Source: Lingula anatina (taxonomy: Eukaryota; Animalia; Brachiopoda). From it: 64,000 nucleotides of DNA. Under the pieces are notes generated by a model. It made no database searches, had not been told where the DNA came from, and was given only the letters and a program-made list of their open reading frames with translations. The stretch covers positions 51,500,788 to 51,564,787 of the forward strand of contig CM120640.1 in assembly GCA_051362555.1 (NCBI GenBank), written 5' to 3'. A program made the position numbers and the translations under genes. Shown piece by piece: positions 26,201 to 38,200 of this stretch (positions are counted from its first letter, which is position 1; the number at the start of each line of letters is the position of its first letter).

Positions 26201-29200
26201 AACTTTTGGAAACCCGTCTGTAGAAATTTTTCCCATAATTCCTTCCGTAGGGTAGATAATTAGCATTTAATTTTGCCATTTTTAGACAAGGGTGCATTGC
26301 AATGAGTGCCACACCTAGACCCCAATACCGACAAAGCCCAAATTTTACATGGAACGAGTTGAGATTATAGGTGACCTAAATCCAAGAGATGGGTACGCAG
26401 GTCCTTGTAGTGTAGGAGGAGAAGCGGTAACGATGACATGGCGGCGGAGCCGGCGGAGCCAGCAGAGTTGGCGGAACGAACCGGACGGGACTAAAACCAT
26501 GTGTACCGCCAGCGCTAACGCTGGTGGTACAATGACTATTGATTAAGCATTAACTTATTATCAAACATAAAAGAACAACTGTCTGGTGAACATGAAGTGT
26601 AACTCACCATTACAGCATGAATACAAAAAAGTTGTTCTTTGTGAAAAGTAAAGATAACAAGCAGAAGAAACTAATAATAAACTGAGGAGTAAACCAATCT
26701 GCCACCGACAGGCCTGGTTCACTCTCACCAAAGAAGACAGGACAAAGCTTTGCTGCTGTCACCCCCCCCCCCCCCCCCAACCCATGCAGTGGCTGTGGTA
26801 AAAAAAATCTTTTGGTTTGGGCACAGAAGAGCTTCCACCTGCTTCTATGCAATACAGCAGTTATCACGGAAGGCTAGCTAAGGGACATCACAGATTACAA
26901 CACCTCTTTGCTGCTGACATAATGACGAAATGTACACTATGATCAAAATAACTATGGCACAATTCTGATTTTTTTTTGTAGCTGAAGATGAAAATTATTT
27001 TTGAGAACTGAAATTGTTTCTCTGTGGCCAGGCAGGGTTATTACTACCTCATGGTTGTTTATTACAATACAGTATTTACCTCTGGTGAATTTCCTTCCTT
27101 TAGTTGCCATATTCTTATAAATGAATCTTCACTGACTGATAATAACTGAAAAATAGAAACAAAACCCTAACAATCCATCTACATGAAATACACATATTTT
27201 AATCAGCTGGCTGACAGTTCAATGCTAGTGATTTTCTAAAAATTCTTCTAAGAGCCTAGCTGCTGTTGCATTAAAAACACAAAACTTGAAACGGATAAAT
27301 ATAAAATATCAACTGCATATTGCTTTTTCTAGCAGAATATTTTTTTTTTTACAAAAAAGTGAGAAACCCTAGAAAACAACATTATATATATGTGTGTATG
27401 GGAGGAGGGGTTTAAAGAAAGACAAGATGCTGCAAATACTTATTTTTTGCAAAACTGTTAATTCAATGAGATACACTTCATTTTCAGTCCTTATGAATCA
27501 GCTAAAAACCTCAAATATTAAGCATTTAATGAGTAAGGAATAGTAATTTATCTTTTTAATATGTCAATATTATATTATATTTTATATATAAGTTCAAAGT
27601 CTGGCTTCATTACAGATAATAGTGAGACCAAGCACTGTCACCTGAGAGATGCTTTTGAAAGCTTATAACCTCAAAAATATAATTTATTACTAATGTTTGA
27701 CAATCAAGGGAATTTAAATAATTTTCTATGTCTGTAAACATACATCTTACTTACATTACTTACTGTGTCTCTTAAAATGTTTAACAAATTCCTCAATCTT
27801 TTTTTATCATTCTGATACATATTATATTATATATTGTAACGCGAGGGGTCGGGCCCGAGCGACCGCGACACCCATGCGCGGCGTGGGAACTTGGATGTTT
27901 CTTAGGGAAAGTATATCCCTGTCCTTCAGAAATAAAGAGGCAGATTTATGTTTTAATAAATTTTATTAAACGGATAAATCGACCATAAAATTCTCAAGTC
28001 AGTGGTGACTATCACATGACTTATTGTCATAAATGTCTATAAAATTGAGAAGTTGGCGTTGCGCGTAGTGTGAGATGACATCTGAGATGGAGTCGACCTC
28101 GTTGACGGCACTGCGTTGGATGGCATCGTTAATGGAATCGGGTAGCGTGCGATGACATCAGGCATCTCTAGTGGTAACCATGCGTAGGTCGGCCTCGTTG
28201 ACGGTTCGTGTTAGATGACATCGTTGATGGAATTGGGTAGCGTGCGATGACATCAGGCATCTCTAGTGGTAACCATGCGTAGGACGGCCTCGTTGACGGT
28301 TTGCGTTAGATGACATCGTTGATGGAATTGGGAAGCGTGCGATGACATCAGGCATCTCTAGTGGTAACCATGCGTAGGACGGCCTCGTTGACGGCACTGC
28401 GTAGATGGCATCGTTGATGGAATTGGGTAGCGTGCGACGACATCTGGCATCTCTAGTGGTAACTACGCGAAGGACGACCTCGTTGGTGGTTCGCGTTAGA
28501 TGGCACCGTTGATGGAATTGGGAAGCGTGCGACGACATCTGGTATCTCTGGTGGTAACTACGCGAAGGACGGCCTTGTTGACGGCACCGCGTTGGATGGC
28601 ATCGTTGATGGACGTCGTTGACCCTCACTTTGTTTCTTCTTGGTATCAGCTGGCTGAATAAGGTATCTGGTGTTCCCAATGGGATAACTAAGGAAACTAA
28701 AATAAAAAAAACTACCCCCAAGTCTCATGGAGGATTTCACCGCACACTTGGACTGGAACATCATCAACAGCACCAAGTTGACGTCTGCGCCGATGGCGCC
28801 CCGGACCCGTACGGCCTTTCACCCGAGGATGAGATGTGCACTTCTCTTCGCCATCAAAACCAGCAGCAACCTTGGCCAGGAACCTGTCAACTGCACCCCA
28901 AGGTCTTGGCCAGGAACTTGTCAACTGCAGCCAAGGGACCAATTCCTACATGCTGGAACCCCTCCTCACCAGGAAAAACACCTCCATATTCAGTCAGCCA
29001 ACTGTCCACTTAAAAACTTAATAATTGCTAGGAGCACTTATATTAAAGAGAGGGTGCTGCCCTCTAAAAAACTCACTGATCTAACTTTGTAAAACCATAG
29101 CTAAATAAGCTTGCCAATCACCTTATTTGTTAAAAGCATAAACCACTTGACTTAGGTAACTTAACGAATTCTCTGACCTTAGCACTTTATTAAAGAGAGG

Positions 29201-35200: not shown

Positions 35201-38200
35201 CCGCGTTGGATGGCATCGTTGATGGACGTCGTTGACCCTCACTTTGTTTCTTCTTGGTATCAGCTGGCTGAATAAGGTATCTGGTGTTCCCACTGGGATA
35301 ACTAAGGAAACTAAAATAAAAAAAAACTACCCCCAAGTCTCATGGAGGATTTCACCGCGCACTTGGACTGGAACATCATCAACAGCACCAAGTTGACGTC
35401 TGCGCCGATGGCGCCCCGGACCCGTACGGCCTTTCACCCGAGGATGAGATGTGCACTTCTCTTCGCCATCAAAACCAGCAGCAACCTTGGCCAGGAACCT
35501 GTCAACTGCACCCCAAGGTCTTGGCCAGGAACTTGTCAACTGCAGCCAAGGGACCAATTCCTACATGCTGGAACCCCTCCTCACCAGGAAAAACACCTCC
35601 ATATTCAGTCAGCCAACTGTCCACTTAAAAACTTAATAATTGCTAGAAGCACTTATATTAAAGAGAGGGTGCTGCCCTCTAAAAAACTCACTGATCTTAC
35701 TTTGTAAAACCATAGCTAAATAAGCTTGCCAATCACCTTATTTGTTAAAAGCATAAACCACTTGACTTAGGTAACTTAACGAATTCTCTGACCTTAGCAC
35801 TTTATTAAAGAGAGGGTGCCACTCTCTGAAAAGCTCACAAATCTAACCTTGTATGACCATAGTTACATAAGCTTGCCAGTCGCCTTACTTGATAAAGGCA
35901 TAAACTTGGCGGTATAAGTCCACCCTTCTAATTAGGTAACTTAATGAATTCTCTGACCTTAGCACTTTATTAAAGAGAGGGTGCCACTCTCTGAAAAGCT
36001 CACAAATCTAACTTTGTATGACCATAGTTAAATAAGCTTGCCAGTCGCCTTACTTGTTTAAAACTCAGAAACTAGTGGTAATTAATCTAACGAGCACATG
36101 CCGGTAAATTTTAAATGACCCAAACATTAAAGATAATCGGTTTCCATATAGTAATAACCCCTTAAGGTAACTCGAGATAACTTGTCCTCTTACAGAGATA
36201 ACCCCTTAAGATAACTTAAGATAACCTACAGAGATAACCTAAGATAAGCTTTGATCTCATAGAGATAACCCATTAAGATAACCTGAGATAACCTATAGAG
36301 ATAACCTGAGATAACCTTTGATCTTATAGAGATAACCCATTAAGATAACCTAAGATAACCTATAGAGATAACCTAAGATAGCGTGTTCTCTTATAGAGAT
36401 AACCTGTTAAGATAACTTAAGATAACCTGTAGAGATAACCTAAGATAACATGTTCTCTTATAGAGATAACCTGTTAAGATAACTTAAGATAACCTATAGA
36501 GATAACCTGAGATAACCTTTGATCTTATGGAAATAACCCATTAAGATAACCTAAGATAACCTATAGAGATAACCTAAGATAACATGTTCTCTTATAGAGA
36601 TAACCTGTTAAGATATATTAAGATAACCTATAGAGATAACCTGAGATAACCTTTGATCTTATAGAGATAACCCATTAAGATAACCTAAGATAACCTATAG
36701 AGATAACCTTAGATAACATGTTCTCTTATAGAGATAACCTGTTAAGATAACTTAAGATAACCTATAGAGATAACCTAAGATACCGTGTTCTCTTATAGAG
36801 ATAACCCATTAAGATAACTTAAGATAACCTGTAGAGATAACCTAAGATAACCTTTGATCCCATAGAGATGACCCCTTAAGATAACCTGGGATAACCTATA
36901 GAGATAACCTAAGATAACATGTTCTCTTATAGAGATAACCTGTTAAGATAACTTAAGATAACCTATAGAGATAACCTAAGATAACATGTTCTCTTATAGA
37001 GATAACCTGTTAAGATAACTTAAGATAACCTATAGAGATAACCTAAGATAACATGTTCTCTTATAGAGATAGCCTGTTAAGATAACTTAAGATAACCTAT
37101 AGAGATAACCTGAGATAACCTTTGATCTCCTAGAGATAACTACAGTAACATAGACGAACAGGTAAAAGAGAAAAAAAAAATTAACTGAACATCACTTAAT
37201 TACTTGCACAGGGAGTGCAAAACAACAGAAGCGGGTAATTAGTGGTGAAAAACGGTTAATAGTAAAAAAAAGGGAGGTCATGGGGAAGCTACGCGAAATA
37301 TCTAAACAGAGAACATAACTTCGATCTAGCAACTACTACAAGTTGAACTTACTAAAATTAGATAAAGTTTCATTAAATTCAGTTCCAAACTACATAGAAA
37401 ATGGCTAATGACAGGCGGGTTACCCCCGGGGGGGCACCCTCTAAATAAAATCTAACTCACTGGTACTAAAGGCTGTTGATTCTAATTCTGTCGAAAGGGG
37501 AGTCAGCTTTTCAAAGAACCCACGCTTTGGCTCTGCAGCCCTATTTATAGACTCCGTTACGTCATGCTCGCGCTGCGGTCAAAGGTCGAAGGTCGCGACC
37601 TAACAGCATGGCCGCTCTGCATGGAAGTGTCACTAACTTGTGTATTGTAGATTTAGCGCCGTATTTCCATTATTTGGGATTTAAATGAAGAATTAACCTA
37701 TGGGTTTAGTTGGATAAACTCCAGGACATATGTCTTTAAGGAAAAACGAAGTCTTAGGTAAGATTTAATGTAAAGTTATTGAAGAAAAGTAGATTCCGGT
37801 CATAGCAGACGATCGTGCAGCACATGTTTACATTGTTTCTAATGATTTTAAATAGCAGATTCGTGGCTCCTGTGACCCCCTTTGTTACAATATATATGAT
37901 ATATATGTTTATTTCAGTATGAGAATAGATGGATATCTTTCCATGTTGTCAACAATACAATTTAATCAGTGATAGTAAAAAGGTGAAAAAATTGCCAGAA
38001 AACATACAAATCCCTTGAGATGGTAACCATGAATACCAAGTAAAAAAATTTATCAAATCATAATATCAAAGCTACTGAAAAACAGTACCACTGGGGAATA
38101 AGGACTCATCAATAACGATCTTCACAATTCATTAAGATAACTGTATGACATTTCTGTTAATTTTTTAAAAACTATATTGAACATCTGCATTCAGCTTTGC

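Follow-up and report, generated by a model that had tools for sequence, protein, structure and literature searches.

VANDAL elements are DNA transposons of plants. In Arabidopsis, both the binding of VANC and DNA demethylation have been shown experimentally (PMC5735166). Among long terminal repeat (LTR) retrotransposons, Cer1 carries an additional open reading frame (ORF) beside gag-pol, and its product, CERV, is translated from spliced mRNA and controls Cer1 itself (PMC10309623). Rice Retrosat2 combines an extra frame, ORF0, with LTRs longer than 3.2 kb that contain multicopy cis motifs (PMC3485330), and LTR12/ERV-9 LTRs hold tandem repeats, variable in number, with GATA motifs (PMC11853044). 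Here we compare with these systems an LTR retrotransposon found in a window of 64,000 nucleotides from the brachiopod Lingula anatina (assembly GCA_051362555.1, contig CM120640.1, positions 51,500,788 to 51,564,787). The element lies on the minus strand at 27835-37889 of the window; it shares with Cer1 and Retrosat2 an extra ORF, here called ORF3, and with Retrosat2 and LTR12 the presence of repeated motifs in its LTRs.

What kind of protein is ORF3? The frame (31542-32024, minus strand) encodes 160 amino acids, with two C2H2 zinc fingers at residues 6-27 and 32-55 and a low-complexity tail containing KAPR (residue 82), TGGK/GGKG (88-92), an acidic patch, and ARKS (124). The match to Pfam zf-C2H2 scores 26.5 bits against a cut-off of 25.2, and the helix residues at positions -1, +3, and +6, read from the sequence, are S/N/R in finger 1 and K/E/K in finger 2, in agreement with the initial annotation of this DNA. 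The GC content of ORF3 is 52%, and that of the spacers on its two sides is 27% and 30%. A PDB search matched ORF3 to generic fingers and found no histone match for the tail; a single-sequence AlphaFold model was uninformative (pLDDT 56.8, pTM 0.22).

The tail contains short motifs like those of histone H3. TGGK and KAPR are presumably words of H3. ARKS corresponds to H3 residues 7-10 (PMC6028506). The joint occurrence of KAPR, TGGK, and ARKS was seen in 0 of 200000 shuffles of the tail. Since these motifs were chosen post hoc, a correction was made with random sequences of 40-120 residues having what we take to be a histone-tail-like composition; for at least three separate shared 4-mers, the corrected p is 0.0002-0.007. 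Among the best 150 of 159 C2H2 matches, no protein contains even two of the three H3-like 4-mers. The chromatin-type motifs that had been noted at first sight thus exceed chance, and ORF3 is an accessory frame, present in multiple copies, that combines C2H2 fingers with H3-like motifs.

Motifs of this kind are known from histone mimics, including ARKT in G9a, ARSK in influenza NS1, and adenovirus protein VII (PMC6028506). As in ORF3, an ARKS-type short linear motif is located in a disordered tail (PMC6028506, PMC10611923), and WIZ is likewise a zinc-finger protein with such a motif (PMC10611923). The motifs of G9a, NS1, protein VII, and WIZ have been shown to be modified or bound, and several of them recruit repression, whereas those of ORF3 are putative mimics. 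In G9a and WIZ the ARK(S/T) motifs have a repressive role, so even a genuine histone mimic does not have to oppose silencing. PMC6028506 makes no use of the word transposon.

Our tentative interpretation, to which we assign a probability of roughly 40%, is that ORF3 is an accessory regulator, likely to act through the H3-like tail on the chromatin of the element that encodes it, and that the array in the LTRs is a separate module, likely one for host GATA factors. The ORF3 mRNA would be produced by splicing from a donor in the LTR to an acceptor before the ATG; a donor-like site is predicted downstream of the TATA box (37455-37462, minus strand; no read uses it), and a run rich in pyrimidines (32027-32042, minus strand), whose final AG lies 2 nt 5' of the ATG, is the predicted acceptor. 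The fingers would bind nucleic acid at a site that differs from the code prediction in the array. As for the tail, its ARKS, TGGK, and KAPR motifs may be a substrate or decoy for the writers and readers of H3K9 and H3K27. The tissue and level of expression would be governed by a host GATA factor reading the array, which lies 3' of the start site.

Neither of the two element-borne precedents has this composition. CERV differs from ORF3 in being large, in having a C4-type loop, and in acting in RNA export (PMC10309623), while ORF0 of Retrosat2 is unrelated to ORF3 (PMC3485330); the available portions of both accounts report no C2H2 fingers together with H3-like motifs. Those of PMC12440569 and PMC6238403 mention no such gene ('ORF' and 'zinc' have 0 occurrences in the latter). 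A literature search, with most subscription papers and Repbase reports outside its scope, found no gypsy element carrying such a gene.

The second component is the array. Tandem units of 67 bp and 95 bp were called in both LTRs by Tandem Repeats Finder (TRF). The 67-bp array of the 5' LTR (36175-37140, 14.4 units) contains 64 copies of AGATAAC, or GTTATCT on the element's sense strand, and that of the 3' LTR (29559-30494) contains 61; all are on a single strand, and the rest of the window has 11 copies on both strands together. The arrays of about 1 kb reported by the initial annotation are therefore real. Each 67-bp unit has five cores, spaced 10, 13, or 21 bp apart, and the array has a CpG observed/expected ratio (o/e) of 0.09. 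The 95-bp arrays are found at 34806-35226 in the 5' LTR (4.4 units, GATAAC absent) and at 28097-28612 in the 3' LTR (5.4 units, CpG o/e 1.38). Unit numbers of the arrays are unequal between the two LTRs. Three imperfect repeats, spaced 147 and 165 bp, are present mid-LTR at 29041 to about 29450, and the 5' LTR has them too.

We take the array motif to be a host GATA site, assuming the WGATAR consensus, and the AGATAAC array likely arose by slippage as a module of host GATA-type sites distinct from ORF3. The resemblance to LTR12 has limits: the repeats of LTR12 are in U3, number 5-17 units of ~41 nt, and have proven binding of NF-Y, GATA-2, and MZF1 (PMC11853044), while the Lingula element has ~65 putative GATA sites, downstream of its TATA box. 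In the sense direction, the 5' LTR has this one TATA match only (37543-37549, minus strand; 3' LTR equivalent near 30902), and both arrays are downstream of it, unlike LTR12-type U3 repeats. RNA was sampled from three of nine listed runs (12.4, 9.5, and 11.1 million records read, or 6, 6, and 25% of each run). In two of them, X11 and X14, sense reads cover 30500-30931 and none are found at 30932-31219, assuming the usual strandedness and at a mean depth of at most 5.3. Given the position of the TATA box and the restriction of sense reads to the region downstream of it, the arrays are probably transcribed or intronic and not part of U3. Putative AATAAA signals are found close to the LTR 3' end (34671-34676, minus strand) and at 35806 and 35971.

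Other observations concern the LTRs. At 34747 and 28609-29092, a plus-strand TATA match near the U5 end of the LTR, the CpG-rich 95-bp array, splice-like sites, and two overlapping frames of 128-134 amino acids that have no Pfam match could together form an antisense unit inside the LTR. In X11, four RNA reads exit the LTR at 31110, in U3, where a donor-like AG/GT is present on the plus strand, and their remaining sequence is absent from the window; in some copy, an LTR transcript of antisense direction may be spliced to an exon of the host. A search of viral contigs for the array pattern gave 0 matches, and contig L002 was discarded, as it comes from a phage and matched by chance. A 32-bp minisatellite at 50942-51171 holds 2 GATAAC words and is not related to the LTR array.

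To which family does the element belong? The ends of the LTRs are TG...CA, and the 5' LTR (34544-37889, minus strand) and 3' LTR (27835-31242, minus strand) measure 3346 and 3408 bp, respectively. They are flanked by a 4-bp target-site duplication, ATAT (27831-27834 and 37890-37893), whose exact length is slightly uncertain owing to the AT-rich flank. Internally, there are a primer-binding site (PBS; 34525-34542, minus strand), which we take to be tRNA-Leu-like, and a polypurine tract (31243-31258, minus strand). These features bear out the element span and the giant LTRs that had been proposed initially, and ORF3 does occupy the env slot. The gag gene (33398-34405, minus strand) encodes 335 amino acids with a CCHC knuckle; it is followed by an aspartic protease frame (32925-33461, minus strand), which is terminated by a stop in the window copy, and by a pol remnant (32238-32924, minus strand) with a deletion junction near 32385-32390. 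A domain search of this remnant in the window copy matched no reverse transcriptase (RT), RNase H, or integrase domain. The LTRs mismatch at only 16 of 2374 aligned bases (67-bp array excluded), so the insertion is young. From its gag and protease relatives and its layout, the element is assigned to Ty3/gypsy, the domains for an RT phylogeny being deleted in the window copy. The window thus contains a Ty3/gypsy family member that inserted recently and has lost part of pol.

Relatives of gag are readily found: 25 of 5523 candidates match at E<=1e-5, one of which is named, from Patiria miniata. A gag profile search detected a single locus, L001, in metagenome contigs and 0 loci in viral or prokaryote contigs. 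L001 (120-3360) shares 42% identity in gag and 35% in protease with the window element and contains integrase in part; an RT match was not found there. In the slot 3' of its pol there is a frameshifted, C2H2-like ORF, in which two remnants of Cys/His fingers precede a tail rich in arginine and serine (RS), and this is a point in favour of ORF3 as an accessory regulator. By BLASTP, the similarity of ORF3 to this L001 fragment is not significant. The L001 LTR (1383 bp) contains 0 copies of AGATAAC and no array. This one case suggests that the finger gene is a trait of the lineage, and that the array is not tied to the finger gene.

Do ORF3 and the array form a VANC-like pair? The initial annotation proposed a sequence-specific anti-silencing system, with ORF3 bound to the AGATAAC copies and histone modifiers either recruited or decoyed by it. 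The classical C2H2 code reads finger 1 as GAN, and the annotation had seen in this a fit to the GAT of AGATAAC. The fit deserves little weight, as GAT is found in 13.6% and GAN in 47% of random 7-mers when either strand is considered. The two-finger site predicted by the code occurs 0 times per kb in the 67-bp array, 2.3 times in the 95-bp array, and 5.5-10.8 times in flanking DNA. Moreover, the linker between the ORF3 fingers is only 4 residues long, a length seen in 47 of 955 linkers in the C2H2 matches listed (7 residues in 612 of 955), and ORF3 lacks the canonical 7-residue H-to-C linker of the TGEKP type. The tandem code may therefore not apply to ORF3, and this weakens both the support claimed in the annotation and the negative site test.

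Further evidence speaks against the pairing. Position -1 of finger 2 differs from the window copy both in X2, a DNA run from another individual, and in two of two X14 reads. The array is nearly free of CpG, its motif equals what we assume to be a host GATA site, and L001 has a zinc-finger-like ORF without an array. At E<=1, Pfam detects in ORF3 only C2H2-type families and no VANC-type family (no direct alignment to VANC was made); ORF3 is thus not a VANC member and at most works alike. In Arabidopsis the binding is experimental (PMC5735166), while binding of ORF3 to the array is not even predicted by the code. We consider the proposed pair improbable. The same low standing applies to its fullest form, an animal counterpart of VANC in which fingers joined by a non-canonical linker would bind the amplified AGATAAC copies and a tail with three H3-mimicking motifs would decoy H3K9/K27 writers, as part of a two-finger and histone-like-tail module recurring in marine-invertebrate retroelements.

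Alternatively, ORF3 might act on RNA in the manner of Rev or CERV. Its own mRNA would be spliced, and the protein would bind the unspliced transcript, possibly at the transcribed arrays, and promote export or prevent premature polyadenylation within an LTR of such length. The arrays are indeed downstream of the sole TATA box, with sense reads heading toward them, and the short finger linker, the RS-rich tail of the L001 ORF, and the precedent of CERV in Cer1 (PMC10309623) are all consistent with such a role. On the other hand, the arrays fold no better than their shuffles (z 0.37, -0.31, and 1.16; regions outside the arrays were not folded), and scans with Rfam (RNA families) and ARAGORN gave no match. 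Splicing was not seen in the reads, and an RNA role leaves the H3-like motifs unexplained. We regard it as rather unlikely that ORF3 functions in this way. A structured array RNA as its target was rejected on the fold z-scores.

How well does ORF3 as a regulator of its element's chromatin withstand the remaining data? Several results weigh against it. Over 4.3 kb, the three RNA runs yield 57, 28, and 1 reads, respectively, among which no RNA splice joint reaches the threshold of 3 reads. No full-length relative of ORF3 was found in the protein, viral-contig, and Atlas searches, and the ORF tail in L001 is RS-rich and not H3-like, with a Pfam C2H2 match (E 0.016) below the cut-off. The assignment to GATA relies on a consensus that we presume, and the array is outside U3, unlike that of LTR12. 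When the main contigs of X2 are compared with the window copy, ORF3 has 8 differences in 483 bp (6 nonsynonymous, 1 synonymous, and 1 in the stop codon); with 1 synonymous of 7, these small numbers give no indication that purifying selection acts on ORF3. These differences are neutral-like (p 0.53), and those of gag-pol slightly not (p 0.037). Finally, X2 has a joint that skips 31309-32079, the ORF3 region, at depth 131.

The search results for ORF3 are as follows. Among protein candidates, 0 of 16 of near-equal length were relatives of ORF3 and 0 of 128 longer ones were relatives of the tail; the best 150 of 159 matches comprise generic multi-finger proteins only. Viral contigs yielded no relative. 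The Atlas comparison placed ORF3 near C2H2 and unnamed clusters at 0.91-0.93, without alignment, and returned nothing for the tail. Reads on ORF3 amount to one or two pairs in each of X11 and X14 (two of the three runs), in the sense direction if strandedness is as usual. In X11, four RNA reads at 31422, in the spacer 3' of ORF3, have a loose end; a variant copy or a chimera is possible.

A broader comparison with X2 puts the ORF3 differences in context. Divergence is 1.7% in ORF3, 0.8% in gag, and 0.9% in pro-pol, with 7 synonymous and 8 nonsynonymous differences in gag and pro-pol (pol stop excluded); the contrast between ORF3 and gag-pol in synonymous changes is not significant (Fisher p 0.19). 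The differences in ORF3 include the finger-2 position mentioned above and its stop codon, and ARKS, TGGK, and KAPR are the same in the X2 main contig, at only 1.7% divergence. A single defective copy probably acquired these changes privately, and they say little about the family. The window copy has a pol stop at 32925-32927 and the deletion near 32385-32390, while the X2 contigs have another reading at the stop and continue into different sequence at the deletion; the broken pol is therefore a trait of the window copy and not of the family. At 1.7% divergence, a frame of 160 codons would still lack a stop 70% of the time, so an intact ORF3 is no evidence of selection. The initial annotation had noted an intact ORF3 beside a broken pol, and this combination does not point to selection either.

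Contig depth in X2, which is no copy number, is ~943-991 at the LTR ends, ~424 in gag/pro, and 286 in ORF3. The class bearing ORF3 accounts for 67% of gag depth and the skipping class for ~31%; most copies thus carry ORF3. The ratio of LTR to gag depth, 2.2-2.3, suggests few solo LTRs. X2 also has joints within 31279-34525 that link the vicinity of the PBS with various points inside the element (depth 45-300, with short sides), which may represent deleted derivatives or other elements with the same LTR end. At 30848-30983, differences cluster and loose ends occur in both X11 and X2, indicating a sister subfamily with a related U3.

Could ORF3 be a captured or dispensable passenger that is drifting, with histone-like words as a by-product of a tail rich in K, R, P, G, S, and T, and arrays that reflect ordinary slippage? 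The neutral-like differences, the ~31% of depth that skips the ORF3 region, the very low RNA, the broken ORF in L001, and the unequal unit numbers between the LTRs would all agree with this. We nevertheless regard it as rather unlikely: the motif excess survives correction, a distant relative has a zinc-finger-like ORF in the same slot, most copies carry ORF3, and the private differences of one defective copy say little about selection in the family.

The surroundings of the element contain host genes and repeats. Minus-strand exon-like frames at 38168-39445, just outside the 5' LTR, belong to what we take to be a WD40-like host gene, and the element may sit in an intron of this gene. An array of 143/288-bp units (23822-25543, ~12 copies) seems to us to resemble the Helentron-associated satellites of molluscs. 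Further host genes, at 2197-3545, 15145-16697, and 53338-54902, encode proteins with chitin-binding CBM_14 and laminin-G domains, seemingly in two copies, and a ligand-gated ion channel. These genes fit an invertebrate host, probably a marine lophotrochozoan.

What would ORF3 mean for its family? The resistance of animal transposons to chromatin silencing is a largely open question, and the best-studied sequence-specific case comes from a plant. A small element-borne protein that appears to combine fingers of a DNA- or RNA-binding type with H3-like motifs would be directly testable. Even without anti-silencing, a zinc-finger gene with swappable tails in the env slot, together with an LTR that has ~65 GATA-type sites, would represent a new accessory layout.

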